From assembly GCF_044647545.1 (NCBI RefSeq), contig NZ_CP172818.1: a stretch of 64,000 nucleotides of DNA; one strand, written 5' to 3'. Under the pieces are notes generated by a model. That model saw only the letters and a program-made list of their open reading frames with translations, was not told the DNA's origin and did no database searches. Origin of the DNA: Escherichia coli. Its GTDB lineage: Bacteria; Pseudomonadota; Gammaproteobacteria; Enterobacterales; Enterobacteriaceae. The position numbers and the translations under genes are program-made. Below are positions 14,201 through 45,733 of the stretch, one piece after another (positions within the stretch are counted from its first letter, which is position 1; every line of letters starts with the position of its first letter).

Positions 14201-17200
14201 ATGGCTACGAAGAAGAGAAGTGGAGAAGAAATAAATGACCGACAAATATTATGCGGGATGGGAATTAAACTACGCCGCTTAACTGCGGGTATCTGTCTGA
14301 TAACTCAACTTGCGTTCCCTATGGCTGCGGCAGCACAAGGTGTGGTAAACGCCGCAACCCAACAACCAGTTCCTGCACAAATTGCCATTGCAAATGCCAA
14401 TACGGTGCCCTACACCCTTGGAGCGTTGGAATCGGCCCAAAGCGTTGCCGAACGTTTCGGTATTTCGGTGGCTGAGTTACGCAAACTCAACCAGTTTCGT
14501 ACGTTTGTTCGTAATGTCCGCCCGGGTGATGAACTGGATGTCCAGGCACAAGTTAGTGAAAAAAATTTAACCCCGCCGCCGGGTAACAGCAGTGGCAACC
14601 TTGAGCAACAGATAGCCAGTACTTCACAGCTAATTGGATCTCTGCTCGCCGAAGATATGAACAGCGAGCAAGCGGCAAACATAGCACGTGGATGGGCCTC
14701 TTCTCAGGCTTCAGGGGTAATGACAGACTGGTTAAGCCGCTTCGGTACCGCAAGAATCACGCTGGGCGTGGATGAAGATTTCAGCCTGAAGAACTCCCAG
14801 TTCGATTTTCTCCATCCGTGGTATGAAACGCCTGATAATCTCTTTTTCAGTCAGCATACTCTCCATCGTACTGACGAGCGTACGCAGATTAACAACGGCT
14901 TAGGTTGGCGTCATTTCACTCCCACATGGATGTCGGGCATCAACTTCTTTTTCGACCACGATCTTAGCCGTTACCACTCCCGCGCCGGCATTGGCGCGGA
15001 GTACTGGCGCGACTATCTAAAATTAAGCAGTAACGGCTATTTGCGACTGACCAACTGGCGCAGCGCACCTGAACTGGACAACGATTATGAAGCACGCCCG
15101 GCCAATGGCTGGGATGTACGCGCAGAAAGCTGGCTACCCGCCTGGCCGCACCTTGGCGGTAAACTGGTCTATGAACAGTATTATGGCGATGAAGTGGCCC
15201 TGTTCGATAAAGACGATCGGCAAAGTAATCCTCATGCCATAACCGCTGGACTTAACTATACCCCCTTCCCGCTGATGACCTTCAGCGCGGAGCAACGCCA
15301 GGGTAAACAGGGCGAAAATGACACCCGTTTTGCCGTCGATTTTACCTGGCAACCTGGCAGCGCAATGCAGAAACAGCTTGACCCGAATGAAGTCGCTGCA
15401 CGGCGTAGCCTTGCAGGCAGCCGTTATGATCTGGTGGATCGCAACAACAATATCGTTCTGGAATATCGCAAAAAAGAACTGGTTCGCCTGACCCTGACAG
15501 ACCCCGTGACAGGGAAGTCAGGAGAAGTGAAATCACTGGTTTCGTCGCTACAAACCAAATATGCCCTGAAAGGCTATAACGTCGAAGCCACCGCACTGGA
15601 AGCTGCCGGTGGCAAAGTGGTCACAACGGGTAAAGATATTCTGGTTACCCTGCCGGCTTACCGGTTCACCAGTACGCCAGAAACCGATAACACCTGGCCG
15701 ATTGAAGTCACCGCCGAAGATGTCAAAGGCAATTTGTCGAATCGTGAACAGAGCATGGTGGTCGTTCAGGCACCTACGCTAAGCCAGAAAGATTCCTCGG
15801 TATCGTTAAGTACCCAAACATTGAACGCGGATTCCCATTCAACCGCCACACTGACTTTTATTGCGCATGATGCAGCAGGTAATCCTGTTGTCGGGCTGGT
15901 GCTCTCGACGCGTCACGAAGGTGTTCAGGACATCACCCTTTCTGACTGGAAAGATAATGGTGACGGAAGCTATACCCAGATCCTGACCACAGGAGCGATG
16001 TCTGGCACGCTGACGCTGATGCCACAGCTGAATGGTGTGGATGCGGCTAAAGCCCCCGCCGTGGTGAATATCATTTCTGTTTCGTCATCCCGAACTCACT
16101 CGTCAATTAAGATTGATAAGGACCGTTATCTCTCCGGCAATCCTATCGAGGTGACGGTAGAACTGAGAGATGAAAATGACAAACCTGTTAAGGAACAAAA
16201 ACAGCAACTGAATAACGCAGTCAGCATCGACAACGTGAAACCAGGAGTCACTACAGACTGGAAAGAAACCGCAGATGGCGTCTATAAGGCGACCTATACC
16301 GCCTATACCAAAGGCAGTGGACTTACTGCGAAGCTATTAATGCAAAACTGGAATGAAGATTTGCATACCGCTGGATTTATCATCGACGCCAACCCGCAGT
16401 CAGCGAAAATTGCGACATTATCTGCCAGCAATAATGGTGTGCTCGCCAATGAGAATGCAGCAAACACCGTCTCGGTCAATGTCGCTGATGAAGGAAGCAA
16501 CCCAATCAATGATCATACCGTCACGTTTGCGGTATTAAGCGGATCGGCAACTTCCTTCAACAATCAAAACACCGCAAAAACGGATGTTAATGGTCTGGCG
16601 ACTTTTGATCTGAAAAGTAGTAAGCAGGAAGACAACACGGTTGAAGTCACCCTTGAAAATGGCGTGAAACAAACGTTAATCGTCAGTTTTGTCGGCGACT
16701 CGAGTACTGCGCAGGTTGATCTGCAGAAGTCGAAAAATGAAGTGGTTGCTGACGGCAATGACAGCGTCACAATGACCGCGACCGTCCGGGATGCAAAAGG
16801 CAACCTGCTCAATGACGTCATGGTCACTTTCAATGTTAATTCAGCAGAGGCGAAACTGAGCCAAACCGAAGTGAATAGCCACGACGGGATCGCCACAGCT
16901 ACGCTGACCAGTTTGAAAAATGGTGATTATAGGGTTACGGCCTCTGTGAGCTCTGGTTCCCAGGCTAATCAACAGGTGAATTTTATCGGTGATCAAAGTA
17001 CTGCTGCCCTGACCCTCAGTGTGCCTTCAGGTGATATCACCGTCACCAACACAGCTCCGCAATATATGACTGCAACCTTGCAGGATAAAAATGGCAACCC
17101 ACTAAAAGATAAAGAAATCACCTTCTCTGTGCCAAACGACGTCGCAAGTAAGTTCTCGATTAGCAACGGAGGAAAAGGCATGACGGATAGTAACGGGGTT

Positions 17201-20200
17201 GCAATCGCCTCCCTGACCGGCACGTTAGCGGGCACGCATATGATCATGGCTCGTCTGGCTAACAGCAATGTCAGCGATGCACAGCCAATGACGTTTGTGG
17301 CGGATAAAGACAGAGCGGTTGTCGTTTTGCAAACATCGAAAGCGGAAATCATTGGGAATGGCGTGGATGAGACAACTCTGACAGCAACAGTGAAAGATCC
17401 GTCGAATCATCCGGTGGCGGGGATAACGGTAAACTTCACCATGCCACAGGACGTTGCGGCAAACTTTACCCTTGAAAATAACGGTATTGCCATCACTCAG
17501 GCCAATGGGGAAGCGCATGTCACGCTGAAAGGTAAAAAAGCGGGCACGCATACGGTTACCGCAACGCTGGGTAATAACAATACCAGTGATTCGCAGCCGG
17601 TAACATTTGTGGCGGACAAAGCCTCGGCTCAGGTTGTCCTGCAGATATCAAAAGATGAGATCACAGGTAATGGCGTCGATAGCGCAACGCTAACTGCAAC
17701 GGTTAAAGATCAGTTCGACAATGAGGTGAATAATCTTCCGGTAACATTCAGCTCAGCCTCTTCAGGACTCACCCTGACCCCGGGAGTAAGTAATACCAAC
17801 GAGTCTGGCATCGCGCAGGCCACTCTCGCAGGCGTTGCCTTTGGTGAGAAGACGGTTACTGCATCACTGGCTAATAATGGTGCCAGCGACAACAAAACTG
17901 TGCATTTTATTGGCGACACAGCGGCGGCAAAAATTATCGAGTTGGCGCCTGTCCCAGACAGCATAATCGCCGGTACCCCGCAGAACAGCTCCGGCAGCGT
18001 CATCACCGCCACAGTCGTTGATAATAATGGCTTTCCGGTGAAAGGTGTGACTGTGAACTTCACCAGCAACGCAGCGACAGCCGAAATGACGAACGGCGGT
18101 CAAGCCGTGACGAACGAACAGGGTAAGGCTACCGTCACTTATACCAATACCCGCTCCTCGATAGAATCAGGAGCGAGACCGGATACCGTTGAGGCCAGTC
18201 TGGAAAATGGTAGCTCCACGCTTAGCACATCAATTAATGTCAACGCTGATGCGTCTACGGCACATCTCACCTTGCTACAGGCACTTTTTGATACAGTCTC
18301 CGCAGGCGAGACAACCAGTCTGTATATTGAGGTGAAGGATAATTACGGCAACGGTGTCCCCCAGCAGGAGGTAACCCTCAGCGTTTCACCAAGTGAAGGC
18401 GTGACCCCCAGTAATAACGCTATATATACTACCAACCACGACGGCAATTTTTACGCAAGCTTTACCGCTACAAAAGCCGGGGTTTATCAATTGACGGCAA
18501 CCCTCGAAAATGGCGATTCGATGCAACAAACAGTGAACTATGTGCCGAACGTCACGAATGCTGAAATCACGCTGGCAGCCTCGAAGGATCCGGTGATTGC
18601 CGACAATAACGATCTCACGACACTAACAGCACCGTCGCTGATACAGAGGGCAATGCGATAGCCAACACTGAGGTAACATTTACTCTACCGGAAGATGTGA
18701 AGGCGAACTTCACGCTGAGCGATGGCGACAAAGCGGTTACTGATGCCGATGGCAAAGCGAAAGTCACGCTGAAAGGTACAAAAGCAGGCGCTCATACCGT
18801 GACAGCATCGATGGTTGGCGGTAAGAGTGAGCAGTTGGTGGTGAACTTTACTGCGGATACGCTCACTGCGCAGGTTAATCTTAACGTTACCGAGGACAAT
18901 TTCATCGCCAATAACATTGGAATGACCAGGCTACAGGCAACAGTGACTGATGGAACGGCAACCCAGTAGAAGGTATAAAAGTTAATTTCCGTGGAACCTC
19001 CGTCACGCTAAGCAGCACCAGCGTTGAAACGGATGATCAGGTTTTCGCTGAAATTCTTGTGACAAGCACCGAGGTCGGACTAAAAACAGTTTCAGCCTCT
19101 CTGGCAGATAAACCTACTGAAGTCATCTCGCGATTACTGAATGCCAAGGTAGATGTTAATTCTGCGACGATTACCAGTCAGGAGATACCTGAAGGTCAGG
19201 TCATGGTCGCACAAGACATAGCAGTTAAAGCTCACGTTAACGACCAGTTTGGCAACCCGGTGACGCATCAACCCGCGACATTCAGTGCAGCGCCATCCTC
19301 GCAAATGATCATCAGCCAGAATACGGTCTCTACTAATACGCAGGGAGTAGCCGAGGTCACCATGACGCCTGAAAGAAACGGCTCGTATACTGTAAAAGCA
19401 TCCCTAGCGAATGGAGCTTCACTTGAGAAACAACTGGAGGCTATTGATGAAAAACTGACACTCACGTCCAGTCCGCTTATCGGTGTCAATGCTCCTAAAG
19501 GCGCTACTCTGACGGCAACGCTAACCTCTGCAAATGGCACTCCAGTGGAGGGTCAGGTCATCAACTTTAGCGTAACGCTAGAAGGTGCGACGTTAAGTGG
19601 CGGAAAAGTGAGAACCAACTCTTCAGGTCAGGCTCCAGTCGTTCTGACCAGCAATAAAGTCGGTACATATACGGTGACTGCATCGTTCCATAACGGCGTC
19701 ACAATACAGACACAGACAACCGTGAAGGTTACTGGCAACCCAAGCACCGCACATGTTGCTAGCTTTATCGCTGATCCGTCGACTATCGCCGCCACCAACA
19801 GTGATTTAAGTACCTTAAAGGCAACGGTTGAGGATGGCAGTGGTAACCTGATCGAAGGTCTCACTGTGTACTTCGCCTTAAAAAGCGGCTCCACCACATT
19901 AACGTCATTAACAGCAGTGACCGATCAAAACGGAATCGCGACAACAAGCGTGAAAGGAGCGATAACGGGGAGCGTCACTGTAAGCACAGTCACAAGCGCA
20001 GGTGGAATGCAAACAGTAGATATATCGCTAGTGGCAGTCCCAGCAGACGCCTCGCAGTCCATCCTTAAGAACAACCAGTCATCACTGAAAGGGGACTTTA
20101 CCGATAGTGCTGAGCTACATCTTGTTCTGCACGATATATCAGGCAATCCGATCAAAGTTTCTGAAGGGATGGAATTTGTGCAATCAGGTACAAACGTGCC

Positions 20201-30445: not shown

Positions 30446-30498
30446 GTTGCCTCCGGTTTTTGAGAATCGGCCCAAGTGCCGCCATTACTTACAACCAG

Positions 30499-30515
30499 AT
30501 TGCAAGATGCTTGCC
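30499..30515 (-). promoter_or_regulatory. Sigma-54 promoter (-24/-12) for nac
   Basis: Minus strand reads TGGCAAGCATCTTGCA, matching TGGCAC-N5-TTGCA about 55 bp upstream of nac start. Confidence 0.6.
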
Positions 30516-30770
30516 AGTTTTATTTTGGCGTTGATGTACAAGCTAACCAACTGTCAAATAAGAGATTATGATAGATTCGTCATTGGCTCTTTTCACCAGC
30601 AGTCGCGTTCCCCTGCCCTATAAAAGGAGGGTATGCACCACGATGGTTCATTACCAATAAGATTGAAATCTCATCACTTTGTTGAAATTGACAGCAAACA
30701 AACAAAAAAATGCATTTCACCCTTTGACATCACCATGCACTGCCATTAATATGCGCCCCGTTCACACGAT

Positions 30771-30846
30771 TCCTCTGTAGTTCAGTCGGTAGAACGGCGG
30801 ACTGTTAATCCGTATGTCACTGGTTCGAGTCCAGTCAGAGGAGCCA
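30771..30846 (+). tRNA. asnV: tRNA-Asn (GUU), canonical
   Basis: Exact 76-nt match to asnT sequence. Confidence 0.9.
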
Positions 30847-30901
30847 AATTCAAAAAAGCCTGCTTTCTAGCAGGCTTTTTGCTTTCTAATTACCAACGCT
30901 C

Positions 30902-31834
30902 TTAAAACATCTGTCTTGAACCAGAACTAATTTGCACAGGCATTCCCGATCGACGTTGCAACGCAGCATTTGCGCGATTCACATCAACTTCTTGCCCGTT
31001 GATAAACGCCCGCAAAGATGGGGTTACCGGCAATGGCACTTTTCGGTCAGACTCATATTCAGCACGATTGCGCGACAGCGGCTCATGAACTTCCAGCCAC
31101 TTTGAACCATCCGGTTCCGTTGTGTATTTCACTGGCTGATCAATAATTTGCACACGAGTACCTACAGGAACATTATCAAACAGATATTTGATATCGTCAT
31201 TGCGCAGACGAATACAGCCCTGACTTACCCGGAGCCCAATACCAAAATTGGCATTGGTACCGTGGATGGCATATAGCCTGCCAATATAAATCGCGTACAG
31301 CCCCATGGGATTATCGGGCCCCGCAGGAACAAATGCGGGCAAACTCTCCCCTCGTTTCGCATATTCGCGCCGGGTGTTCGGCGTTGGCGTCCAGGTTGGT
31401 GCTTCTTGTTTACGTTCAACGGTAGTCACCCAGTTACGCGGGGTTTCTCGCCCAGCCTGGCCGATACCAATAGGAAAGACTTCCACAGTATTACTGTCTG
31501 GTGGGTAGTAATAAAGACGCATCTCAGCGACGTTAACCACAATCCCTTTACGAACAGTGGCGGGCAAAATCAGTTGCTGCGGAATGGTGAGTTGCGAACC
31601 TGACTTCGGTAAGAAGACATCAGCGCCCGGATTCGCTTCCAGCATGTTACTTAACCCTTGCCCGTATTGTGCGGCAAAAGTCTCCAGCGGCTGGGTATTG
31701 TGATCAGGAACAGTTACAGTAAGCGACTGCCCCACTAAACGGCTACCCTCTGGAGGTAATGGATAAGTTACCGCCAGGCTAGTATGGCTGGCAAAAAGCA
31801 GAGCAAATGAGCAAAGAATATTTACACGACGCAT
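30902..31834 (-). CDS. ldtA: L,D-transpeptidase (YkuD domain)
   Basis: ORF with signal peptide and YkuD catalytic region; matches ErfK/LdtA. Confidence 0.8.
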
Positions 31835-31898
31835 CATGTCCCTTTCCTAAGTCGCGAAAGCTATCGGTTAAGTATAGCTTTTATCAGACTTTTCGTTT

Positions 31899-32978
31899 TT
31901 AACTGTTCAAATCAGAAGTCGTATTCCCCGGTAGAACAATTTTACTGGCAGCAAGTTCGCCCATGTTGTTGTATATCGCACAAGCAGCTTCGATGATGGG
32001 CATCGCCAGAGCTGCGCCACTCCCCTCACCTAAACGCATATCCATATTGAGAAAAGGCTCCAGCCCCAAATGCGACAGCGCTATACGCGCCCCTTTTTCT
32101 GCCGACAGGTGAGAAGGAATGAGATACGGTTTGATTGCAGGAGACATCTGGCAGGCTGCGAGCGCAGCAGCATAAGAAAGAAATCCATCCAGCAACACGG
32201 GTAAACCGCAGGAAGCAGCGCCTAACATCACGCCAGCCATTCCGACCAAATCAAATCCACCCACTTTTGCCAGAACATTAACGCCATCCTGCGGATTTGG
32301 CTGATTCAACGTAATCGCCCGGCGCACAACATCAATTTTATTAGCCAGTTTATCTGTCGGCAGGTTTGCGCCAATCCCAACCACTTCTTCAGGATCCCGG
32401 CCAGTGATTGTGCTGACTATTGCTGCTGCCGGTGTCGTGTTTGCCATCCCCAGTTCACCTACACCAAACAGCGTGACACCGTTTTTTGCCAGCTCCCGCG
32501 TATAACATATGACGTCCAAAAGTAACTTTTCAGCCTGACGGCGACTCATTGCCGGAGCTGAAGCAATATTGCCGCTACCTCGTGCGACACGCATGTTGAT
32601 AAGCCCGGGGATAGGCTCAGCAGTATCAATACCAACATCAATTACGTGGACGTTAGCGCCCGCTTGTGCTGCCAGCACACACACGCCGGTTGTTCCGCGG
32701 GTCATATTTTCAGCCTGAATGGCTGTCACTTCTTTTGGGGAAATAGCGACCCCTTCCTCCCAGACGCCGTGATCGGCACACATAACCAGTACCGCTTTTT
32801 TGCCCACATGCGGTATGCCATTCAACCCCGGCATTCCCGCCAGTTGTACGCCAAGCGCCTCCAGCCTTCCCAGGCTACCAACAGGTTTGAGTAACCCGTC
32901 AATATGCCGTTGTGCACGCGACATAGCGGCAGGATCGATGGCAGGGATCGTATTCAGTAAATTGGCAAGTGTTTGCAT
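31899..32978 (-). CDS. cobT: Nicotinate-nucleotide:dimethylbenzimidazole phosphoribosyltransferase
   Basis: 359-aa ORF matching CobT; first gene of convergent cobUST block. Confidence 0.85.
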
Positions 32979-32989
32979 GTCACGTCTCT

Positions 32990-33733
32990 TTATAGCAGTG
33001 CCAGCAGGAAGACCAGTTCACCAAGCTCTATGGCTGCTCCCAGCGTATCGCCGGTTTGCCCGCCCAGCGTACGTTTGAGAAGCTGACCGAGGATGAAAAT
33101 CGCCACCATCGTCACCACCATAGCAGCCACACCATGCATACCCGGCAATAATACGGCAGCAAAAATAGCGGCTAAGCCGAGTGTGACGCAGGTTTGTCGC
33201 CCATCAATTTTGCCAATGAACACATTGCCAAGCCCTTCTTCCCGGGCATAACGATGACGATACATCAATAATGCGGCAGTCCCGCGGCTGATCGCACATG
33301 CTGCCGCCAGCGATGCAAGGATCGGTTCGCCACGCAGAGCCAACTCGCTTAACACCAAAATCTTTGCCAGTACAACAAAAATCAATGCCAGACCGCCGTG
33401 GGTACCTAAACGGCTATCACGCATGATTTCCAACATGCGATCGCGGCTACGTGCAGAAAATACGCCATCACAGGTATCAGCGAGGCCGTCCAGATGGAAT
33501 CCCCCGGTCATCAGCACCAGCACAAGTACGCTAAACAGTGCCGCCAGTGGTGCGCCACACCATGCCTGCAGCACCATGAAGACCAGCCCGCTAATCGCGC
33601 CAAGCAATAATCCAATCAAAGGAAAAGTAATAATACCGCGAGAATAATGCTCGAAATCCAGTCCCTGGGACCAGCGACGCGGTACAGGCAGACGCGTAAT
33701 AAATGAGAGCATCGCCCAAAATAATTTACTCAT
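32990..33733 (-). CDS. cobS: Cobalamin 5'-phosphate synthase
   Basis: Polytopic ORF, internal start [16 protein letters not shown]... Confidence 0.85.
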
Positions 33734-34275
33734 TTGATTTTTACTCCAATACCCGAAACCACCAGCCATACTTCATTTGCCGCAGCGGCCAACTGCTGAT
33801 TTACCCGCCCGGCAATATCACGAAAATGTCGTGCCAGACGACTCTCCGGCACAATCCCCATTCCCACTTCGTTAGTCACTAATACAACCTTTGCGGGGCA
33901 ACGTTGGCAGGCAGCAATCAACGACTGAATCTCAGCATTAATCGCCTGTTCCATCGCCTGATAATCCCATTCATCAGGGTCTTTATCGCCGCCATAATCA
34001 AACAACAGATTAGTCACCATTGTGGTAACGCATTCAAGCAACACAACCTCATTCGGGTTAATGTCTGCATGAATTAATTCATCAAGATGTTGCCAGCGCT
34101 CCACTGTGCGCCAGTGCTCCGGGCGGCCTTGCCGATGATGTTCTATCCGTGCAGCCATCTCATCATCAAGGATTTGCGAGGTAGCGATATACAGAACCTG
34201 TGAAGAGTCCCCAATAAGCGCCTCTGCGTGGCGACTCTTCCCGCTCCGTGCGCCCCCCGTCACCAAAATCATCAT
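33730..34275 (-). CDS. cobU: Adenosylcobinamide kinase / adenosylcobinamide-phosphate guanylyltransferase
   Basis: 181-aa ORF with P-loop GGARSGKS. Confidence 0.85.
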
Positions 34276-35691
34276 ACCGACTCCTGATTCAAATGTATGA
34301 TGGTATTCATTGAACAGAACAATGGATCCCCCACCGTTGCTGACCGCAAAACATTTACGCGATTAATACTGCGCGTAATATAATTAAAAATCCAGCATTC
34401 TCAATCCATTACGAAATAAGATGGCATTACGGAATAGCCAGACTTTCTCGTGTTAACGTCCGACAAAATGCGTCATTGACAGCGGTTTCTGTGGATTGAC
34501 ACATTTCATTCAGATAATGAATTAATGCTACTGCCGGAACAACCAGCAAACGGGCATTGTGTTCTGAAATCCAGGCTATTGATTCAACGTCAGCGACAGA
34601 TCTGCGCTGTAAAAGAACTTGTAAAACAACGTAATAGAATTATCCGGAATGGTGGCCTAGAACACCACAATTTCGCTCTCTCGGTAAGGCACTGTCACAG
34701 CATTCAACAGAATGTGACTTGCCAGATTTATTAGCGCCACCAGATGTTTAACCGGGTAACCACGACCCAGTCGGGGATATATTCCATCTTCTCGCTGACA
34801 TCATCAAGAATAAAAAGGTTTATCACACTCAGAGCAACGTTCTTCAGCAGGCGGGATAATTCTTCAACATTTAGAAGATGTGTTATTAAAGGCATACAAA
34901 CTGGACGTATTGTATTTTCTTTTGGTGGTTGACCTAAGGTAGCAGTTTATCCTGATGCGCTGAGATTTCTGTAATATCTACGTCAACATTCTCCTCGAAT
35001 AGAAAATGCAGCCCCGGCAAGTGATTCACATTTTTTAACAAAACGTTGTTAGCGTGCCATTTTCAGAAGCTCTCCAAGAAAGCGAATTCTTTTCTCAAAT
35101 TCTGCATTCTCAGACACAGCTTTCTACTCCATGGTAATGGCCCAAATACGAAGTTGCTCAGGATCATTAGTGGTGCTGAGAAGTTAAATAACCATGCGGA
35201 GTACCACTCGTCATCACGTATTTATATATCATGAAGCTATTGTTGTGTTTTGTACATCAGTAGATATATTCTGATATACTCCTTTTGCTAGACATAACCT
35301 TTCACCTGCTTGCAAAGCTTCTGTGTTCTGACATTGCCAAATTGTTGCAATTCTGTATCCAGCCTTCTTTCAGTCATAGCTTCGGGCCGCGATAAGACTC
35401 ACTGATCTGACCCTGATTCCTCTTGCAGACTTTATAGACCAATTAAAATGCAGTTTCTGCAGGTCAACGTCTGACCATCATTGTCATCACTCTGGCCATT
35501 AGAGTAACCTTCTGCATTCATCCTTTTGTAAAAAGTTTATATTAGTATCAGCAATTAACCGGACCTGATACTGATATGAGTCTTACCGCATATACGGTCA
35601 ATTTCAGCAATTAATTACATTATCCACGCCAAAGTATTTGTCATCACAATGATGGTACCTTCTTTCAGACACCATTTTTTCAACTCCGTTT

Positions 35692-35732
35692 TCCACGGAC
35701 CGCACTCTTATGTCAAGAGTGCGGTCCGTGGA
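35692..35732. repeat. Perfect 18-bp inverted repeat with 5-nt spacer
   Basis: TCCACGGACCGCACTCTT-atgtc-AAGAGTGCGGTCCGTGGA; no T-run after it. Confidence 0.9.
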
Positions 35733-35883
35733 TACAACCAGAGACCGACTGACACGAGTCAGAGGAAACGACGGATATGTTCAGTCGTAAAATATCTATC
35801 AAAAAACATGATTAAGGTCAAAAATGTTTGATATTTACAATTTATGAAGATGACAATAATTATAGATATATGAGAACATAAAT

Positions 35884-35904
35884 GAAAATAATTATCATTA
35901 CAGC
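35884..35904 (+). promoter_or_regulatory. Fur-box-like sequence upstream of TonB-dependent receptor gene
   Basis: GAAAATAATTATCATTACAGC resembles Fur consensus GATAATGATAATCATTATC. Confidence 0.35.
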
Positions 35905-36254
35905 AATCATTTGTACTTTGTATTAATGAGGGATGAAATGTTATATAATATACCTTGTCGAATTTATATCCTTTCCACTCTGTCATTATGCATTTCTGGG
36001 ATAGTTTCTACTGCAACCGCAACTTCTTCAGAAACAAAAATCAGCAACGAAGAGACGCTCGTCGTGACCACGAATCGTTCGGCAAGCAACCTTTGGGAAA
36101 GCCCGGCGACTATACAGGTTATTGACCAACAAACATTGCAGAACTCCACCAATGCCTCCATAGCCGATAATTTGCAGGACATCCCCGGAGTAGAGATAAC
36201 AGACAACTCCTTGGCAGGCCGTAAACAAATCCGCATTCGTGGCTGGATTTGCCC

Positions 36255-37160
36255 CTATATTTCCAGACATCTGTTATCACTTAACCCATTACAAGCCCGC
36301 TGCCGCAGATATTCCCGTGGCGAGCGATAACCCAGCGCACTATGCGGATGCCATTCGTTATAATGCTCGAACGCCTCTGCAAGGTTCTTTGCTGCCGTTA
36401 ACCCGTCTGGTTTGGGCATGATACTGATGTAGTCACGCTTTATCGTTTTCACGAAGCTCTCTGCTATTCCGTTACTCTCCGGACTCCGCACCGCCGTGTT
36501 CTTCGGTTCAAGTCCCAACATCCGGGCGAACTGGCGTGTTTCATTAGCCCGGTAGCATGAACCATTATCCGTCAGCCACTCCACTGGAGACGACGGAAGA
36601 TCGTTGCCGAAGCGGCGTTCCACCGCTCCCAGCATGACGTCCTGTACTGTTTCACTGTTGAAGCCGCCGGTAGTGACCGCCCAGTGCAGTGCCTCACGAT
36701 CACAGCAGTCCAGCGCGAACGTGACACGCAGTCTCTCTCCGTTATCACAGCAGAACTCGAACCCGTCAGAGCACCATCGCTGATTGCTTTCTTTCACGGC
36801 CACTCTGCCTGTATGTGCCCGTTTCGATGGCGGTACAGCAGGTTTTCGCTCAAGCAACAGCGCATTCTGGCGCATGATCCGGTAAACACGTTTGGCATTG
36901 ATCGCAGGCATACCATCAAGTTCTGCCTGTCTGCGAAGCAGCGCCCATACCCGACGATAACCATACGTTGGCAGCTCTCCGATAACATGGTGTATACGGA
37001 GAAGCACATCCGTATCATCAGTGTGACGACTGCGGCGGCCATCCATCCAGTCATCGGTTCGTCTGAGAATGACGTGCAACTGCGCACGCGACACCCGGAG
37101 ACAACGGCTGACTAAGCTTACTCCCCATCCCCGGGCAATAAGGGCGCGTGCGCTATCCAC
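36255..37160 (-). CDS. insD: IS2 transposase OrfB (DDE integrase domain)
   Basis: 301-aa [33 protein letters not shown]... matches InsD. Confidence 0.9.
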
Positions 37161-37482
37161 TTTTTTGCCCGTCCATATTCAACGGCTTCTTTGAGGAGTT
37201 CATTTTCCATCGTTTTCTTGCCGAGCAGGCGCTGGAGTTCTTTAATCTGCTTCATGGCAGCAGCAAGTTCAGAGGCAGGAACGACCTGTTCTCCGCGGCG
37301 ACAGCAGTAAGACTTCCCCCCTGGATTGCTTGCGCCAGAGAAATAACTGGCTGGCTGCTACACCGTGTTGCCGGGCAACAAGGGAGGCCGTCATTCCCGG
37401 TTCAAAGCTCTGCTGAACAATAGCGCTCTTTTCCTGTGTAGTACGCCGTCTGCGTTTCTCCGGTCCCTAAGACATCAATCAT
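37118..37482 (-). pseudogene. insC: IS2 OrfA (InsC), out of frame in this copy
   Basis: ATG...TAA span is 365 nt (not a multiple of 3); MIDVLG then frame lost; later frames still encode [12 protein letters not shown]...LFLWRKQ and ...[45 protein letters not shown]. Confidence 0.65.
37160..37167 (-). promoter_or_regulatory. IS2 programmed -1 frameshift slippery site (A6G)
   Basis: Minus strand CAAAAAAG at the insC/insD overlap. Confidence 0.6.
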
Positions 37483-37804
37483 CTGTTCTCCAATGACTAA
37501 GTCAAAAACTAGAATATTAAGACTATCACTTATTTAAGTGATATTGGTTGTCTGGAGATTCTGGGGGCTAGTCTAGTGGCGAAGCATCCTCCCGTGTTTT
37601 AATTCTCATTGATGGTCAGGAGGTAACTTATCAGCGCGCCGGAGATAATTATGGTGTGGGACTGTTGATAGATGAGTCTGCGCTGGAGCGTGTTGAGATA
37701 GTGAAAGGTCCATATTCCGTACTGTACGGTTCACAGGCAATTGGCGGTATTGTTAACTTCATCACCAAAAAGGGTGAATCTCCAGACTCCCTATATCACT
37801 TAAA

Positions 37805-38515
37805 TTGATACAACTTTTTAGAGTAGTCATTAGTGAACAGATAATTGATAACTCAGAACCAGTAAAATGCAAAAGACGCACCACGCTGGGAAAATCGCTG
37901 CTATTCAGCAGAGTTTTGTATCGAGAATGGTGGCCAGCCACTTATTGCTCTCGCGTAAGCGGGTACCGTGACATTCTGCCCGAACTGGACCTGGTACTGT
38001 GGCTGATTAAAGCCGATGACCGTGCCCTGTCTGTGGATGAGTATTTCTGGCGACACATCCTGCACCGGGGACATCAGCGGGTACTGTTTGTGGTGATGCA
38101 GGCCGATAAAACGGAGCCCTGCCATGAATGGGATATGGCCGGTATTCAGCCTTCTCCCGCACAGGCACAGAACATTCGCGAAAAAACGGAGGCGGTATTC
38201 CGTCTGTTCCGGCCCGTACATCGGGTTGTTGCCGTATCGGCCCGCACCGGCTGGGAACTGGATACGCTGGTCAGTGCGCTCATGACAGCACTTCCCGACC
38301 ATGCCGCCAGTCCCCTGATGACCCGCCTGCAGGACGAGCTGCGCACGGAATCTGTCCGCGCTCAGGCCCGTGAACAGTTTACCGGTGCGGTGGACCGGAT
38401 ATTTGACACGGCGGAGAGCGCCTGTATTGCCTCTGTTGCACGCACGGTTCTGCGTGCCGTCCGTGACTCGGTGGTCTCTGTTGCCCGCGCGGTATGGAAC
38501 TGGATTTTCTTCTGA
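37805..38515 (+). pseudogene. yeeP: Prophage GTPase-like protein, N-terminally truncated (no P-loop)
   Basis: 236-aa ORF matches the C-terminal part of YeeP-type GTP-binding proteins; no GxxxxGK[ST] motif present. Confidence 0.55.
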
Positions 38516-38609
38516 ACCGGTGGTGACTGATGCCCTCCCTGACTCTGAGTCTGCTCACAAAAGCACTGTTTTCGTTACTGTCTCTCTTGTCCGTGCAATA
38601 GCTCAATAA

Positions 38610-38818
38610 TAGAATAAAACGATCAATATCTATTTTATCGATCGTTTATATCGATCGATAAGCTAATAATAACCTTTGTCAGTAACATGCACAGATACGT
38701 ACAGAAAGACATTCAGGGAACAACAGAACCACAATTCAGAAACTCCCACAGCCGGACCTCCGGCACTGTAACCCTTTACCTGCCGGTATCCACGTTTGTG
38801 GGTACCGGCTTTTTTATT
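38610..38818 (+). ncRNA. isrC: Small RNA IsrC region (5' leader upstream of flu); boundaries approximate
   Basis: Position between yeeP and flu; ends at intrinsic terminator CCGGTATCCAC-gttt-GTGGGTACCGG plus T6 (38780..38818). Confidence 0.4.
38621..38656 (+). promoter_or_regulatory. Three GATC sites (Dam/OxyR phase-variation switch of Ag43)
   Basis: GATC at 38621, 38640 and 38653 within aacGATCaatatctattttatcGATCgtttatatcGATCgataag, about 200 bp upstream of flu. Confidence 0.75.
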
Positions 38819-38842
38819 CACCCTCAATCTAAGGAAAAGCTG

Positions 38843-41800
38843 ATGAAACGACATCTGAATACCTGCTACAGGCTGGTATGGAATCACATGACGGGCGCTT
38901 TCGTGGTTGCCTCCGAACTGGCCCGCGCACGGGGTAAACGTGGCGGTGTGGCGGTTGCACTGTCTCTTGCCGCAGTCACGTCACTCCCGGTGCTGGCTGC
39001 TGACATCGTTGTGCACCCGGGAGAAACCGTGAACGGCGGAACACTGGCAAATCATGACAACCAGATTGTCTTCGGTACGACCAACGGAATGACCATCAGT
39101 ACCGGGCTGGAGTATGGGCCGGATAACGAGGCCAATACCGGCGGGCAATGGGTACAGGATGGCGGAACAGCCAACAAAACGACTGTCACCAGTGGTGGTC
39201 TTCAGAGAGTGAACCCCGGTGGAAGTGTCTCAGACACGGTTATCAGTGCCGGAGGCGGACAGAGCCTTCAGGGACGGGCTGTGAACACCACGCTGAATGG
39301 TGGCGAACAGTGGATGCATGAGGGGGCGATAGCCACAGGAACCGTCATTAATGATAAGGGCTGGCAGGTCGTCAAGCCCGGTACAGTGGCAACGGATACC
39401 GTTGTTAATACCGGGGCGGAAGGGGGACCGGATGCAGAAAACGGTGATACCGGGCAGTTTGTTCGCGGGGATGCCGTACGCACAACCATCAATAAAAACG
39501 GTCGCCAGATTGTGAGAGCTGAAGGAACGGCAAATACCACTGTGGTTTATGCCGGCGGCGACCAGACTGTACATGGTCACGCACTGGATACCACGCTGAA
39601 TGGGGGATACCAGTATGTGCACAACGGCGGTACAGCGTCTGACACTGTTGTGAACAGTGACGGCTGGCAGATTGTCAAAAACGGGGGTGTGGCCGGGAAT
39701 ACCACCGTTAATCAGAAGGGCAGACTGCAGGTGGACGCCGGTGGTACAGCCACGAATGTCACCCTGAAGCAGGGCGGCGCACTGGTTACCAGTACGGCTG
39801 CAACCGTTACCGGCATAAACCGCCTGGGAGCATTCTCTGTTGTGGAGGGTAAAGCTGATAATGTCGTACTGGAAAATGGCGGACGCCTGGATGTGCTGAC
39901 CGGACACACAGCCACTAATACCCGCGTGGATGATGGCGGAACGCTGGATGTCCGCAACGGTGGCACCGCCACCACCGTATCCATGGGAAATGGCGGTGTA
40001 CTGCTGGCCGATTCCGGTGCCGCTGTCAGTGGTACCCGGAGCGACGGAAAGGCATTCAGTATCGGAGGCGGTCAGGCGGATGCCCTGATGCTGGAAAAAG
40101 GCAGTTCATTCACGCTGAACGCCGGTGATACGGCCACGGATACCACGGTAAATGGCGGACTGTTCACCGCCAGGGGCGGCACACTGGCGGGCACCACCAC
40201 GCTGAATAACGGCGCCATACTTACCCTTTCCGGGAAGACGGTGAACAACGATACCCTGACCATCCGTGAAGGCGATGCACTCCTGCAGGGAGGCTCTCTC
40301 ACCGGTAACGGCAGCGTGGAAAAATCAGGAAGTGGCACACTCACTGTCAGCAACACCACACTCACCCAGAAAGCCGTCAACCTGAATGAAGGCACGCTGA
40401 CGCTGAACGACAGTACCGTCACCACGGATGTCATTGCTCAGCGCGGTACAGCCCTGAAGCTGACCGGCAGCACTGTGCTGAACGGTGCCATTGACCCCAC
40501 GAATGTCACTCTCGCCTCCGGTGCCACCTGGAATATCCCCGATAACGCCACGGTGCAGTCGGTGGTGGATGACCTCAGCCATGCCGGACAGATTCATTTC
40601 ACCTCCACCCGCACAGGGAAGTTCGTACCGGCAACCCTGAAAGTGAAAAACCTGAACGGACAGAATGGCACCATCAGCCTGCGTGTACGCCCGGATATGG
40701 CACAGAACAATGCTGACAGACTGGTCATTGACGGCGGCAGGGCAACCGGAAAAACCATCCTGAACCTGGTGAACGCCGGCAACAGTGCGTCGGGGCTGGC
40801 GACCAGCGGTAAGGGTATTCAGGTGGTGGAAGCCATTAACGGTGCCACCACGGAGGAAGGGGCCTTTGTCCAGGGGAACAGGCTGCAGGCCGGTGCCTTT
40901 AACTACTCCCTCAACCGGGACAGTGATGAGAGCTGGTATCTGCGCAGTGAAAATGCTTATCGTGCAGAAGTCCCCCTGTATGCCTCCATGCTGACACAGG
41001 CAATGGACTATGACCGGATTGTGGCAGGCTCCCGCAGCCATCAGACCGGTGTAAATGGTGAAAACAACAGCGTCCGTCTCAGCATTCAGGGCGGTCATCT
41101 CGGTCACGATAACAATGGCGGTATTGCCCGTGGGGCCACGCCGGAAAGCAGCGGCAGCTATGGATTCGTCCGTCTGGAGGGTGACCTGATGAGAACAGAG
41201 GTTGCCGGTATGTCTGTGACCGCGGGGGTATATGGTGCTGCTGGCCATTCTTCCGTTGATGTTAAGGATGATGACGGCTCCCGTGCCGGCACGGTCCGGG
41301 ATGATGCCGGCAGCCTGGGCGGATACCTGAATCTGGTACACACGTCCTCCGGCCTGTGGGCTGACATTGTGGCACAGGGAACCCGCCACAGCATGAAAGC
41401 GTCATCGGACAATAACGACTTCCGCGCCCGGGGCTGGGGCTGGCTGGGCTCACTGGAAACCGGTCTGCCCTTCAGTATCACTGACAACCTGATGCTGGAG
41501 CCACAACTGCAGTATACCTGGCAGGGACTTTCCCTGGATGACGGTAAGGACAACGCCGGTTATGTGAAGTTCGGGCATGGCAGTGCACAACATGTGCGTG
41601 CCGGTTTCCGTCTGGGCAGCCACAACGATATGACCTTTGGCGAAGGCACCTCATCCCGTGCCCCCCTGCGTGACAGTGCAAAACACAGTGTGAGTGAATT
41701 ACCGGTGAACTGGTGGGTACAGCCTTCTGTTATCCGCACCTTCAGCTCCCGGGGAGATATGCGTGTGGGGACTTCCACTGCAGGCAGCGGGATGACGTTC

Positions 41801-41962
41801 TCTCCCTCACAGAATGGCACATCACTGGACCTGCAGGCCGGACTGGAAGCCCGTGTCCGGGAAAATATCACCCTGGGCGTTCAGGCCGGTTATGCCCACA
41901 GCGTCAGCGGCAGCAGCGCTGAAGGGTATAACGGTCAGGCCACACTGAATGTGACCTTCTGA
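38843..41962 (+). CDS. flu: Antigen 43 self-associating autotransporter adhesin
   Basis: 1039-aa ORF from MKRHLNTCYRLVWNHMTGAFVVASELARARG (extended signal peptide), beta-helical passenger repeats, C-terminal beta-barrel ending ...QATLNVTF. Confidence 0.9.
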   Translation: MKRHLNTCYRLVWNHMTGAFVVASELARARGKRGGVAVALSLAAVTSLPVLAADIVVHPGETVNGGTLANHDNQIVFGTTNGMTISTGLEYGPDNEANTGGQWVQDGGTANKTTVTSGGLQRVNPGGSVSDTVISAGGGQSLQGRAVNTTLNGGEQWMHEGAIATGTVINDKGWQVVKPGTVATDTVVNTGAEGGPDAENGDTGQFVRGDAVRTTINKNGRQIVRAEGTANTTVVYAGGDQTVHGHALDTTLNGGYQYVHNGGTASDTVVNSDGWQIVKNGGVAGNTTVNQKGRLQVDAGGTATNVTLKQGGALVTSTAATVTGINRLGAFSVVEGKADNVVLENGGRLDVLTGHTATNTRVDDGGTLDVRNGGTATTVSMGNGGVLLADSGAAVSGTRSDGKAFSIGGGQADALMLEKGSSFTLNAGDTATDTTVNGGLFTARGGTLAGTTTLNNGAILTLSGKTVNNDTLTIREGDALLQGGSLTGNGSVEKSGSGTLTVSNTTLTQKAVNLNEGTLTLNDSTVTTDVIAQRGTALKLTGSTVLNGAIDPTNVTLASGATWNIPDNATVQSVVDDLSHAGQIHFTSTRTGKFVPATLKVKNLNGQNGTISLRVRPDMAQNNADRLVIDGGRATGKTILNLVNAGNSASGLATSGKGIQVVEAINGATTEEGAFVQGNRLQAGAFNYSLNRDSDESWYLRSENAYRAEVPLYASMLTQAMDYDRIVAGSRSHQTGVNGENNSVRLSIQGGHLGHDNNGGIARGATPESSGSYGFVRLEGDLMRTEVAGMSVTAGVYGAAGHSSVDVKDDDGSRAGTVRDDAGSLGGYLNLVHTSSGLWADIVAQGTRHSMKASSDNNDFRARGWGWLGSLETGLPFSITDNLMLEPQLQYTWQGLSLDDGKDNAGYVKFGHGSAQHVRAGFRLGSHNDMTFGEGTSSRAPLRDSAKHSVSELPVNWWVQPSVIRTFSSRGDMRVGTSTAGSGMTFSPSQNGTSLDLQAGLEARVRENITLGVQAGYAHSVSGSSAEGYNGQATLNVTF

Positions 41963-42076
41963 CAGAACCATCGCCTCTCTGTGGTCCCGGTCATCATGAC
42001 CGGGACCCGGACCGGCGCAACGGATCTTCAACGCCACATTCGCTGGCATTAACAATAACATGATATTCATCACGGA

Positions 42077-43615
42077 GTGACTATGTTACAGATAGTCGGC
42101 GCGCTGATCCTGCTGATCGCAGGATTTGCCATTCTTCGCCTTTTGTTCAGAGCATTAATCAGCACGGCTTCTGCGCTGGCAGGGCTCATATTGCTGTGTC
42201 TGTTCGGCCCGGCCTTACTGGCTGGCTATATCACCGAACGCATAACCCGGTTGTTCCATATTCGCTGGCTGGCAGGCGTATTTCTGACGATTGCCGGAAT
42301 GATCATCAGCTTCATGTGGGGACTTGATGGTAAACATATCGCGCTGGAGGCTCACACCTTTGACTCTGTGAAATTTATTCTGACCACCGCTCTCGCCGGT
42401 GGTCTGCTGGCTGTTCCCCTGCAGATCAAAAACATTCAGCAGAACGGGATCACACCAGAAGATATCAGCAAGGAAATTAACGGGTATTACTGCTGTTTTT
42501 ATACTGCCTTTTTCCTTATGGCGTGTTCTGCATGCGCACCATTGATCGCGTTACAGTACGATATTTCACCGTCACTGATGTGGTGGGGCGGGTTGTTGTA
42601 CTGGCTGGCTGCATTAGTGACGCTGCTATGGGCGGCCAGCCAGATCCAGGCGCTGAAAAAACTGACCTGTGCCATCAGCCAGACACTGGAAGAACAACCG
42701 GTGCTCAACAGTAAATCGTGGCTGACCAGTTTGCAAAACGATTACAGCCTTCCTGACTCACTGACGGAGCGCATCTGGCTGACGCTCATTTCTCAACGGA
42801 TTTCCCGGGGAGAGCTGAGGGAATTTGAACTGGCAGACGGAAACTGGTTACTGAACAATGCCTGGTATGAAAGAAACATGGCAGGGTTTAACGAACAGTT
42901 GAAAGAGAACCTGTCATTCACACCTGATGAACTGAAAACGCTCTTCCGGAACCGCCTGAATTTATCACCGGAAGCGAATGACGATTTTCTCGATCGTTGC
43001 CTGGACGGCGGTGACTGGTATCCCTTTTCAGAAGGTCGCCGTTTTGTATCATTCCATCACGTGGATGAGCTTCGTATCTGTGCCTCCTGCGGGCTGACAG
43101 AAGTACATCATGCCCCGGAAAATCATAAGCCGGATCCGGAATGGTACTGCTCCTCTCTTTGTCGCGAAACAGAAACACTGTGTCAGGAAATTTATGAACG
43201 CCCTTACAACAGCTTTATTTCCGATGCAACGGCGAATGGTCTGATTCTCATGAAACTGCCGGAAACCTGGAGTACAAATGAGAAAATGTTTGCTTCCGGA
43301 GGGCAGGGACATGGGTTTGCCGCTGAACGGGGAAACCATATTGTCGACAGAGTCCGTCTGAAAAACGCACGGATCCTCGGTGATAATAATGCCAGAAATG
43401 GAGCAGACAGACTGGTCAGCGGAACAGAAATCCAGACGAAATATTGTTCAACTGCAGCCCGTAGCGTCGGTGCGGCATTCGACGGACAAAACGGACAGTA
43501 TCGTTACATGGGAAATAATGGCCCCATGCAACTGGAAGTCCCCCGTGATCAGTATGCCGGCGCTGTTGAAACCATGAGGAATAAGATCCGCGAAGGTAAA
43601 GTAGAGGAGCGATGA
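42077..43615 (+). CDS. yeeR: Prophage inner-membrane protein of unknown function with Cys-rich C-terminal region
   Basis: 512-aa ORF; N-terminal TM helices; CASCG...CSSLC motif. Confidence 0.75.
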   Translation: MTMLQIVGALILLIAGFAILRLLFRALISTASALAGLILLCLFGPALLAGYITERITRLFHIRWLAGVFLTIAGMIISFMWGLDGKHIALEAHTFDSVKFILTTALAGGLLAVPLQIKNIQQNGITPEDISKEINGYYCCFYTAFFLMACSACAPLIALQYDISPSLMWWGGLLYWLAALVTLLWAASQIQALKKLTCAISQTLEEQPVLNSKSWLTSLQNDYSLPDSLTERIWLTLISQRISRGELREFELADGNWLLNNAWYERNMAGFNEQLKENLSFTPDELKTLFRNRLNLSPEANDDFLDRCLDGGDWYPFSEGRRFVSFHHVDELRICASCGLTEVHHAPENHKPDPEWYCSSLCRETETLCQEIYERPYNSFISDATANGLILMKLPETWSTNEKMFASGGQGHGFAAERGNHIVDRVRLKNARILGDNNARNGADRLVSGTEIQTKYCSTAARSVGAAFDGQNGQYRYMGNNGPMQLEVPRDQYAGAVETMRNKIREGKVEER

Positions 43616-44058: not shown

Positions 44059-44120
44059 CCCGTCACAACCACATCACACCTGTTTTCACTTTTATCTTCT
44101 GTCTTCAGAGGTATCCCACT

Positions 44121-44342
44121 ATGAAAATTATCACCCGTGGCGAAGCCATGCGTATTCACCGTCAGCATCCGGCATCCCGTCTTTTTCCGTTCTGTACCGG
44201 CAAATACCGCTGGCACGGCAGTGCTGAAGCTTATACCGGTCGTGAAGTGCAGGATATTCCCGGTGTGCTGGCCGTGTTTGCCGAACGCCGTAAGGACAGT
44301 TTTGGTCCGTATGTCCGGCTGATGAGCGTCACCCTGAACTGA
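44121..44342 (+). CDS. yeeT: DUF987-family small protein
   Basis: 73-aa ORF MKIITRGEAMRIHRQHPASRLFPFCTGKYRWHGSAEAYTGREV... Confidence 0.75.
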   Translation: MKIITRGEAMRIHRQHPASRLFPFCTGKYRWHGSAEAYTGREVQDIPGVLAVFAERRKDSFGPYVRLMSVTLN

Positions 44343-44416
44343 AAGTGGGAATTCTGCTCATCAGAATTATCACCACTACCGAACCATTCTTACCGATTTT
44401 CTGTAAGGATTTTATC

Positions 44417-44785
44417 GTGTCAGACACACTCTCCGGGACAACACATCCCGACGACAATCACGACCACCCCTGGTGGGGACTACCCTGCACCGTGACGCCC
44501 TGTTTCGGCGCCCGTCTGGTGCAGGAGGGTAACCGCTTGCATTACCTTGCCGACCGCGCCGGTAACAGAGGCCTGTTCAGCGATGCAGATGCGTACCCCC
44601 TGGACCAGGCCTTTCCGCTGCTGATGAAACAACTGGAACTCATGCTCACCAGCGGTGAACTGAATCCCCGCCATCAGCATACCGTCACACTGTATGCGAA
44701 GGGGCTGACCTGTGAAGCTGACACCCTCGGCAGCTGTGGTTACGTTTATCTGGCTGTTTATCCGACGCCCGAAACGAAAAATTAA
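44417..44785 (+). CDS. cbeA: Type IV antitoxin (cytoskeleton bundling-enhancing factor)
   Basis: GTG start; VSDTLSGTTHPDDNHDHPWWGLPCTVTPCFGARLVQEGNRLHYLADRAG... matches CbeA/YeeU. Confidence 0.8.
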   Translation: MSDTLSGTTHPDDNHDHPWWGLPCTVTPCFGARLVQEGNRLHYLADRAGNRGLFSDADAYPLDQAFPLLMKQLELMLTSGELNPRHQHTVTLYAKGLTCEADTLGSCGYVYLAVYPTPETKN

Positions 44786-44873
44786 CCCACCGGAATAACC
44801 TTCTGCTCCGGCCTGGTGCTTTCACCACGCCACTTTTCCATTTTTATCTCTGCATATCAGGAAAATCTTCAGT

Positions 44874-45246
44874 ATGAAAACATTACCCGTATTACCCGGG
44901 CAGGCGGCGTTCTCGCCCGTCTCCTGTTACCATCTGGCAGATACTGCTCACCCGATTACTGGACCAGCACTACAGCCTTACGCTGAATGACACACCGTTC
45001 GCCGATGAACGCGTGATTGAGCAGCATATTGAGGCAGGCATTTCACTGTGTGATGCAGTGAACTTTCTCGTGGAAAAATACGTACTGGTACAACTGACCA
45101 GCCGGGATTCAGCGCCGGAACCCGTCTCAGTTAATCAACAGCATTGATATCCTCCGGGCTCGCCGGGCAACCGGTCTGATGACCCGCAGCAACTACAGAA
45201 CGGTAAATAACATTACCCTGGGTAAGTATCCGGAGGCGAAAAATGA
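44874..45246 (+). pseudogene. cbtA: Type IV toxin CbtA (YeeV), frameshifted at least twice
   Basis: [12 protein letters not shown] then frame lost; second frame [54 protein letters not shown]; third frame DILRARRATGLMTR.NYRTVNNITLGKYPEAK runs into yeeW. Confidence 0.7.
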
Positions 45247-45439
45247 AATGACGCTGGAAGCCGACAGCGTTAACGTACAGGCGCTGGATATGGGGCACAT
45301 TGTCGTTGACGTCGATGGTGTTAATCTCACTGAACTGATTAATAAAGCCGCTGAAAACGGTTATTCACTCCGCGTGGTGGATGACCGTGACACTACCGAA
45401 ACACCGGCAACTTCTGCCAGCCCTCATCAGTTGCCGTAA
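45247..45439 (+). CDS. yeeW: Small prophage protein
   Basis: MTLEADSVNVQALDMGHIVVDVDGVNLTELINKAAENGYSLRVVDDRD...; in this sequence its frame is continuous with the last cbtA fragment. Confidence 0.6.
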
Positions 45440-45479
45440 GACAATACAGTGATACAGAGTATAATGCCATTAGCCACAG

Positions 45480-45492
45480 AAAAAAAAAAAAA
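45480..45492. repeat. A13 homopolymer
   Basis: 13 consecutive A downstream of yeeW. Confidence 0.9.
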
Positions 45493-45637: not shown

Positions 45638-45733
45638 ATATACAGAAAGGAAAACCGATAATAATGGAATGGACGCCCCGACCATGAAGCAACGGTAGGA
45701 TATTACTGATAAACCTTCCAGTGGAGGTGCGTT

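Follow-up and report, generated by a model that had tools for sequence, protein, structure and literature searches.

Repetitive adhesin genes are described sites of mis-assembly, as in upaH of strain CFT073, and caution has been advised for yeeJ of Escherichia coli, an adhesin gene with immunoglobulin-like (Ig-like) repeats that is frameshifted in 15 of 96 complete genomes (PMC5595812). Frame changes inside the transposase genes of IS2 also have a natural form, the programmed −1 frameshift of the IS3 family, which fuses insC and insD. A third comparison is offered by assemblies made by reference-guided consensus or gap filling with collapsed paralogues, where reference sequence stands in for parts that have no homologue in the sample, islands are missing, errors fall on breakpoints and paralogues are blended. 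The stretch of E. coli DNA analyzed here (64,000 nucleotides of contig NZ_CP172818.1, assembly GCF_044647545.1; hereafter the window) contains the dcm–his region and, in its yeeJ, insC, cbtA, and cbl genes, a cluster of frame disruptions that can be compared with all three. The window very probably represents an isolate of sequence type 648 (ST648; phylogroup F, MS6198-like) that was reconstructed on a K-12 MG1655 template, and not a faithful de novo sequence.

Broken Genes and the Closest Natural Genome

In K-12 MG1655, the window corresponds to the region between about 2.030 and 2.097 Mb, which extends from vsr–dcm to hisF, and the aligned blocks are roughly 93–99% identical. The K-12 elements yodB, IS5H, and yefM-yoeB are missing, and the CP4-44 cryptic prophage is retained, with IS2F inside yoeA. 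In K-12, 56 coding sequences (CDS) are annotated in this region, and 53 were transferred onto the window. Full length was found for 49 of these 53, including dcm, cobUST, sbcB, and hisLGDCBHAF, in agreement with an initial annotation, made from the sequence alone, which had called the housekeeping genes intact. The remaining four (yeeJ, cbl, insC, and cbtA) are truncated, and indels are confined to the same four. All but one of the seven lesions which that annotation had named are present, the exception being an extra G in asnW (see below).

Lesions were sought in a set of 5,426 complete genomes, and those found in none of them are referred to as private. The disruptions had been proposed to cluster in genes with paralogues or internal repeats. 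This is borne out for three of the four broken genes, which lie among the roughly ten repeat or multicopy genes of the 56 annotated (hypergeometric P = 0.016), as well as for the private lesions, each of which falls either in sequence that has paralogues or on a breakpoint relative to K-12. The proposal is too narrow, however, in that breakpoints outside repeats are also hit. The cause thus looks broader than repeats, namely a template-guided chimera with errors also at non-repeat breakpoints relative to K-12.

The region as a whole has no close match among the complete RefSeq genomes of E. coli, where the best 20-kb match reaches 98.7%. Its blocks of single-copy sequence are nevertheless very close to those of MS6198, a strain of ST648 and phylogroup F (PMC8281228). 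Positions 1–12227 are 99.99% identical to MS6198, with 0 differences in 12.1 kb, positions 18492–36243 are 99.88% identical, and 45650–56519 differ by two single-nucleotide polymorphisms (SNPs), so that unique window sequence carries 0–2 SNPs per 10 kb. Judging from the near-identity of these three blocks, the isolate is essentially MS6198-like in its single-copy sequence.

Such accuracy bears on the idea that homopolymer errors of the sequencing platform (454, Ion Torrent, or unpolished nanopore) occur throughout the genome and were noticed only in accessory genes. The change of AAA to AA at 18954 is indeed one of run length, and odd runs of C10 and A13 occur at 20615 and 45480. Errors of this kind should spread indels through the single-copy genes, and this pattern was not found: 49 of the 53 genes are intact, single-copy sequence is nearly error-free against MS6198 (not one difference over 12.1 kb, and two SNPs over 11 kb), and most private indels lie outside homopolymers. 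The explanation has next to no probability. Several of the lesions had been described as length changes of short homopolymers, which is correct for 18954 (A3 to A2) and arguably for 37295 (GG to G) but for none of the other indels, and slippage in homopolymers is not the predominant kind of error.

Blended Paralogues in insC and cbeA-cbtA-yeeW

At the K-12-specific IS2F site inside yoeA, the window carries an IS2 element on the minus strand (36244–37575), whose insD (36255–37160) shows 100% identity to the K-12 gene. An order in which yeeP′–flu–yeeR follows a yoeA interrupted by IS2F is present in only 368 genomes, of which the three sampled are all laboratory derivatives of K-12. The insC third of the element (37228–37575, minus strand) is chimeric and broken. 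A disruption of its frame had been recorded correctly, but the lesions are more numerous than listed: five to six private indels were found, at 37295 (−1), 37325 (−1), 37464 (+1), 37500/37504 (+1/−1), and 37513 (+2), with truncation at codon 26. Like the programmed frameshift of the IS3 family, they change the frame inside an IS2 transposase gene; unlike it, they lie upstream in insC and truncate the product. Programmed frameshifting was rejected as their cause, the insC/insD overlap (37118–37160) being identical to K-12 and the indels lying at 37295–37513.

The source of the divergent alleles can be traced. MS6198 carries an IS2 remnant of 351 bp (IS2 positions 981–1331) at 3.381 Mb, over 1 Mb away from the locus, and the IS2F of the window is pure K-12 until the point where the remnant starts, so that the divergent stretch equals the extent of the remnant. 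At the 18 sites which separate K-12 IS2F from the remnant, the window agrees with the remnant at 14 and with K-12 at three, and one site is deleted. Two of the indels fall exactly on such SNP sites, where one lacks the base altogether and the other keeps both alleles as an insertion. Each of the indels is private, and the private changes in insC comprise indels only, with zero private substitutions. The best natural match to this IS2 segment among about 21,700 places is 95.4% identical.

A second and finer chimera extends over cbeA-cbtA-yeeW (44342–45660, plus strand), where two MS6198 paralogues are blended. MS6198 has two copies of the cbtA family, of which copy A is syntenic and nearly K-12-like, while copy B belongs to another CP4-like island, at 3.400 Mb. 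Among 202 substitution sites that discriminate between A and B, the window follows A at 119, B at 81, and neither at two. Alleles switch between A and B 72 times within 1.3 kb, compared with 99 ± 7 switches under random shuffling, and B alleles are found for the most part where the local divergence of B is lower (P = 0.001). Such site-by-site blending of two copies of one genome is the expected product of per-position consensus on a mixed-read pile-up and would not result from recombination. Among 12,809 places, the best natural match to cbtA (501 bp) is 92.9% identical.

The toxin gene cbtA itself (44874–45245, plus strand) is truncated at codon 38 and contains four indels, at 44909 (−2), 45093 (−1), 45125 (−1), and 45242–45247 (+4), twice as many as the two that had been reported for this correctly recognized broken frame. 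The −1 at 45093 also occurs in copy A of MS6198 and in Z1323CEC0019, both of which are annotated as frameshifted; because it is present in independent assemblies, this lesion is natural and real. The other three are private. Together with +AA at 44342 and +A10 at 45480, they make up a set of private indels each of which coincides with an indel or a hyperdivergent stretch of copy B. In particular, the A10 insertion (45480–45489, plus strand) coincides exactly with the site of an additional segment of about 93 bp in B, and the +4 and A10 look like truncated or garbled traces of the +12 and approximately +93-bp insertions of B.

The allele sources were not recovered with a first panel of paralogues, composed of K-12 CP4-44, CP4-6, and CP4-57 as well as VE-V11-M and Z1323CEC0019, which explained only 54 of 88 substitutions. 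K-12 CP4-6 and CP4-57 were rejected as too divergent (about 53% identity). The IS2 remnant (3.381 Mb) and copy B (3.400 Mb) lie about 20 kb apart in one CP4-like island of MS6198, and a single off-target island therefore accounts for both chimeric regions. Genes of CP4-type toxin–antitoxin systems are also often truly frameshifted in good complete genomes, namely cbtA in MS6198 and Z1323CEC0019 and cbeA in VE-V11-M, and a broken cbtA alone is therefore no evidence of error.

K-12 Architecture and Its Breakpoints

Around these chimeras, the window retains the layout of K-12 even where MS6198 is organized differently. The isrC-flu-yeeR segment (38527–43604, plus strand) lies within a stretch without any mismatch to K-12 MG1655 (38523–43609). 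The limits of this run (38522/43610) fall within 4–5 bp of the end and return of MS6198 homology (38526/43605), and for the flu region and the centre of yeeJ taken together, K-12-identical runs end within 4–45 bp of the loss of MS6198 homology. At the gene level, insD, flu, and cobU are 100% and yeeR 99.9% identical to K-12. From these coincidences, isrC-flu-yeeR is interpreted as reference fill.

The preceding segment (37576–38526, plus strand) is a patchwork of three pieces of MS6198 which derive from loci about 56 and 65 kb apart and are set in K-12 order (yoeA′, yeeP′). Each piece is 99.8–100% identical to MS6198; in the local numbering of the three MS6198 stretches, they comprise 26994–27192, 33309–33499, and 719–1283. 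Conversely, two large elements of MS6198 are absent from the window. The yersiniabactin high-pathogenicity island (HPI), which in MS6198 is inserted at asnT and fused to the 5′ end of yeeJ, is missing at 13888–14476. Missing at 36243/37576 is an island of about 60 kb that separates yoeA from yeeS in MS6198 and carries asparaginase, dcu, and dgo genes among others.

Once paralogous sequence is set aside, nearly every difference that separates the window from MS6198 coincides with a breakpoint relative to K-12. Private changes of this kind occur at 12105, 12227–54, 18954, 20612–34, 34657, 38519, and 56519–56730. Between zinT and serU, an MS6198-like segment (12105–12254) replaces the yodB of K-12; a −1 falls on the edge of the yodB deletion at 12105, and 12227–12251 is garbled and shortened. 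The empty site of IS5H (34656–34657) has 9 bp (GACTATGCA) fewer than the natural empty site of MS6198, and this loss is an over-deletion at a K-12 breakpoint. A further −1 lies on the breakpoint at 38519. Between yeeZ and hisL, finally, the segment which replaces yefM-yoeB (56519–56730) is MS6198-like in its middle, while no complete genome has its edges or the 20-bp insertion within it, and the version of the junction found in the window (56480–56770) is present in 0 of the 5,426 genomes. Apart from two SNPs in sbcB, plain single-copy sequence contains no private change. In an assembly made without a K-12 reference, unique changes would not be expected to gather at K-12-specific breakpoints.

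A mixture of ST648 reads with K-12 contamination, assembled de novo and resolved from the graph into chimeric paths, would account for ST648 alleles in the shared sequence as well as for segments and junctions that exist only in K-12. The absence of the HPI and of the 60-kb island is hard to derive from such a mixture, which also leaves without explanation the imprecise deletions of 1 and 9 bp, the garbled short junctions, and the site-by-site blend of two paralogues of one ST648 genome. A mixed sample is hence regarded as improbable.

The yeeJ Locus

The inverse autotransporter adhesin gene yeeJ (14258–20636, plus strand) is broken into three open reading frames (ORFs; 14126–18661, 18697–18969, and 19059–20636). 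In comparison with K-12, it has an in-frame 9-bp deletion at 14508, a deletion of one 312-bp repeat at about 18936–18964, and a deletion of the 3′ end, all of which occur in natural genomes. The two frame disruptions that had been noted, single-base losses at 18634 and 18954, are both present, and they probably differ in origin.

The first (18634, plus strand; K-12 AGCAACAGTC to AGCACC-GTC) recurs in MS6198, VE-V11-M, and BHUCD01, and all 40 top matches listed for a query of 18560–19030 agree with it. Given its presence in independent assemblies, it is a real allele, and the gene is already a deletion remnant in ST648. The second (18954–18956, plus strand) shortens AAA to AA (GGAAAC to GGAAC) on the junction of the 312-bp deletion, so that 313 bp are missing relative to K-12 where the natural deletion removes 312. 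With the same 471-bp query, 0 of the 5,426 genomes matched at 100%, and each of the 40 matches listed spans 472 bp; as every one of them is 1 bp longer than the window and none is identical, the lesion is private. It is probably an imprecise deletion call. The locus thus resembles the described cases of adhesin mis-assembly in that an Ig-like adhesin gene carries a frameshift which is probably an assembly error, and it differs from them in that 18634 is a true allele of many independent genomes and yeeJ is a deletion remnant in ST648 anyway.

The 312-bp deletion at 18936–18964 is itself natural in form: at this point, MS6198 and VE-V11-M are both missing one Ig-like repeat of 104 codons, exactly 312 bp, compared with K-12. 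A 29-bp overlap of the K-12 alignment blocks at the same positions suggests an in-frame deletion from repeat to repeat. Tandem Repeats Finder reported no array in yeeJ, the Ig-like repeats being only about 70% alike.

The centre of yeeJ (14798–18492, plus strand) is deleted in MS6198, and here the window shows no mismatch to K-12 from 14783 to 18536, the limits of the identical run (14782/18537) lying close to the ends of the MS6198 deletion (14798/18492). This part is probably K-12 fill. Its standing as strong proof of fill was downgraded, however, for VE-V11-M and Z1323PEC0010 carry almost the same allele. Only three genomes exceed 99% identity across the endpoint of the deletion (14480–15120), and none of them is among the 28 genomes with the cbl duplication described below; the yeeJ centre therefore still counts in combination with the other observations. 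At the 3′ end, the deletion breakpoint relative to K-12 is a garbled junction with a run of C10 (20612–20634, plus strand), where MS6198 and VE-V11-M share a clean junction; an exact-pattern scan of the genome contigs gave no match to the C10 version.

These alleles bear on the view that every lesion is real, the strain being a natural or laboratory recombinant with an ST648 backbone and K-12-type CP4-44 DNA whose accessory genes (yeeJ, insC, cbtA, and cbl) are decaying. True frameshifts are frequent in good assemblies, not only in cbtA of MS6198 and Z1323CEC0019 and cbeA of VE-V11-M but also in yeeJ of many genomes, as in the 15 of 96 complete genomes cited above (PMC5595812), and three lesions of the window (in cbl, at yeeJ 18634, and at cbtA 45093) are demonstrably real. 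Real decay would nevertheless need 72 alternations of paralogue alleles in 1.3 kb. It would also have to produce private changes in insC that are indels without private substitutions, tracts of K-12 identity that stop a few bp from structural breakpoints on both sides, and private changes that gather at breakpoints relative to K-12. None of the 5,426 genomes shows these features together, and this explanation appears very unlikely. The initial annotation had held decay and consensus errors from mis-mapped reads to be equally compatible with the disruptions; an artefact fits the private lesions, whereas the three named above are real. As a cluster, the frameshifts are not a real biological feature.

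Probable Reconstruction on a K-12 Template

The preferred reading is a reconstruction of an ST648-type isolate on the K-12 template. All four traits of the reference-guided assemblies introduced above are found in the window: it is identical to the reference where MS6198 has no homologue, its private differences lie at breakpoints, paralogues are blended, and sample-specific insertions are absent. It departs from such assemblies in that short non-reference segments (about 180 and 210 bp) are rebuilt in it, and the process was thus not one of plain base substitution. What the sequences show directly is the pattern of alleles, the coincidence of breakpoints, and which lesions other genomes share or lack; it is from these that we infer the assembly procedure.

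The procedure would have been a read-mapping consensus or a reference-guided scaffolding with gap filling. Where single-copy sequence is homologous to K-12, the consensus would be correct and nearly that of MS6198. Where the isolate has no homologue, the K-12 bases would be kept, as in flu-yeeR, in the insD portion of IS2F and, probably, in the central part of yeeJ, and islands specific to the isolate (the HPI and the island of about 60 kb) would be dropped. At loci that are single-copy in K-12 and have paralogues elsewhere in the isolate, reads of the paralogues would pile up on the K-12 locus, and consensus calls made site by site on the piled reads would yield allele chimeras, with spurious indels where the paralogues differ in length or where reads are clipped. 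Deletions relative to K-12 would be misplaced by 1 or 9 bp. The private frame disruptions, that is yeeJ 18954, those of insC, and three of the four cbtA indels, would result from these steps.

Several observations weigh against this reading. IS5H was removed and IS2F was kept, which needs the extra assumption that reads from the remnant, partly covering IS2F, blocked the deletion call. The sequences of several junctions are neither those of K-12 nor those of MS6198 and need either a local reassembly that makes errors or real strain differences. Identity of the yeeJ centre to K-12 is not diagnostic alone, the natural VE-V11-M being only 3 SNPs away from the window in this part. Two private non-synonymous SNPs in sbcB (50095 and 50106, 11 bp apart; S9P and L12F) are not explained: they are absent from K-12 and MS6198, the protein that they encode has no record among 153 billion gene positions, and they could be real strain mutations or errors. 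Lastly, gene conversion from the IS2 remnant could give the SNP pattern of insC, though not its excess of indels. The corresponding alternative takes the sequence as accurate and assumes a strain of ST648 background with acquired K-12-type CP4-44 DNA (IS2F, flu, and yeeR), in which indel-prone gene conversion acts among two CP4-like islands and the IS2 copies with tracts averaging less than 20 bp; it is considered extremely improbable.

With reconstruction on a K-12 template as the preferred reading, the assembly is unfit for inferring gene content, pseudogenes, positions of insertion sequences, or islands around CP4-44, yeeJ, and asnT. The cluster of frameshifts is a useful warning sign of template-guided chimeras, and a check that needs no reads is available: the nearest natural genome is identified, private differences are examined for their position on breakpoints of the reference, and “novel” alleles are examined for whether they can be decomposed into known paralogues.

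The cbl Pseudogene

The fourth broken gene stands apart from the other three. Cbl is a LysR-type activator of sulfonate-sulfur genes, namely of the ssu and tau sulfonate-utilization operons. In the window, cbl (28469–29426, minus strand) is a pseudogene, in which the frame stops after 44 codons, whereas the intact one has 316. A 7-bp tandem duplication in the helix-turn-helix region (29316–29336, minus strand) gives TCAGGCG TCAGGCG TCAGCCG on the coding strand, with one TCAGGCG more than in K-12, and the reading frame is lost inside that region. The 141 bp around the duplication match at 100% in 28 complete genomes. MS6198 is identical to the window in the duplication and its 141-bp context, and its gene (MS6198_RS11065) is labelled “frameshifted” by the Prokaryotic Genome Annotation Pipeline (PGAP). 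Because the duplication is common to independently sequenced complete genomes, it is a real marker of the lineage, and the earlier judgement that this 7-bp expansion is the lesion least likely to be an artefact holds. With the lesion shared by independent genomes and the reading frame destroyed, cbl corresponds to a lineage-fixed pseudogene.

The duplication would have arisen by strand slippage, and the DNA-binding N-terminus would be removed from the product. A phase-variable contingency locus was rejected: the change is only from two to three copies, there is no long tract, and K-12 and the runner-up matches listed (95.0% identity, record span 134 bp) have two copies without further variation. 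Cbl-dependent activation of ssu and tau should be abolished by this truncation, and the same duplication in 28 genomes of MS6198 (ST648) type predicts a loss of Cbl-dependent utilization of sulfonate sulfur in the clade. The pseudogene is already annotated in RefSeq genomes, and a literature search for ST648 and cbl returned no paper mentioning both.

tRNA-Asn Genes and Further Observations

The extra G that had been reported in asnW is absent. ARAGORN identified four tRNA-Asn genes of 76 nt, which are identical to each other and to the four of K-12, and asnW (tRNA-Asn(GUU), 26532–26607, minus strand) is one of these intact genes. The A-rich intergenic spacer between yeeN and asnW contains small indels relative to K-12 at 26138, 26172, and 26436; they are common to MS6198 and therefore natural, and they may be what was mistaken for a change in asnW.

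The top match of the window is BHUCD01 (NZ_CM183442.1, RefSeq), whose chromosome measures 4,641,498 bp against 4,641,652 bp in MG1655. Its gene coordinates run parallel to those of MG1655 and yodB is kept, yet it has non-K-12 alleles and frameshifted yeeJ, dgcQ, and yedS. BHUCD01 looks like another K-12-scaffolded assembly.

At two loci it is K-12 that is the decayed genome, its own copies being pseudogenes. The counterparts of yeeL (glycosyltransferase family 9; 20780–21895, minus strand) and yedS (OmpC-like porin; 4177–5322, plus strand) are intact ORFs in the window and likewise in MS6198.

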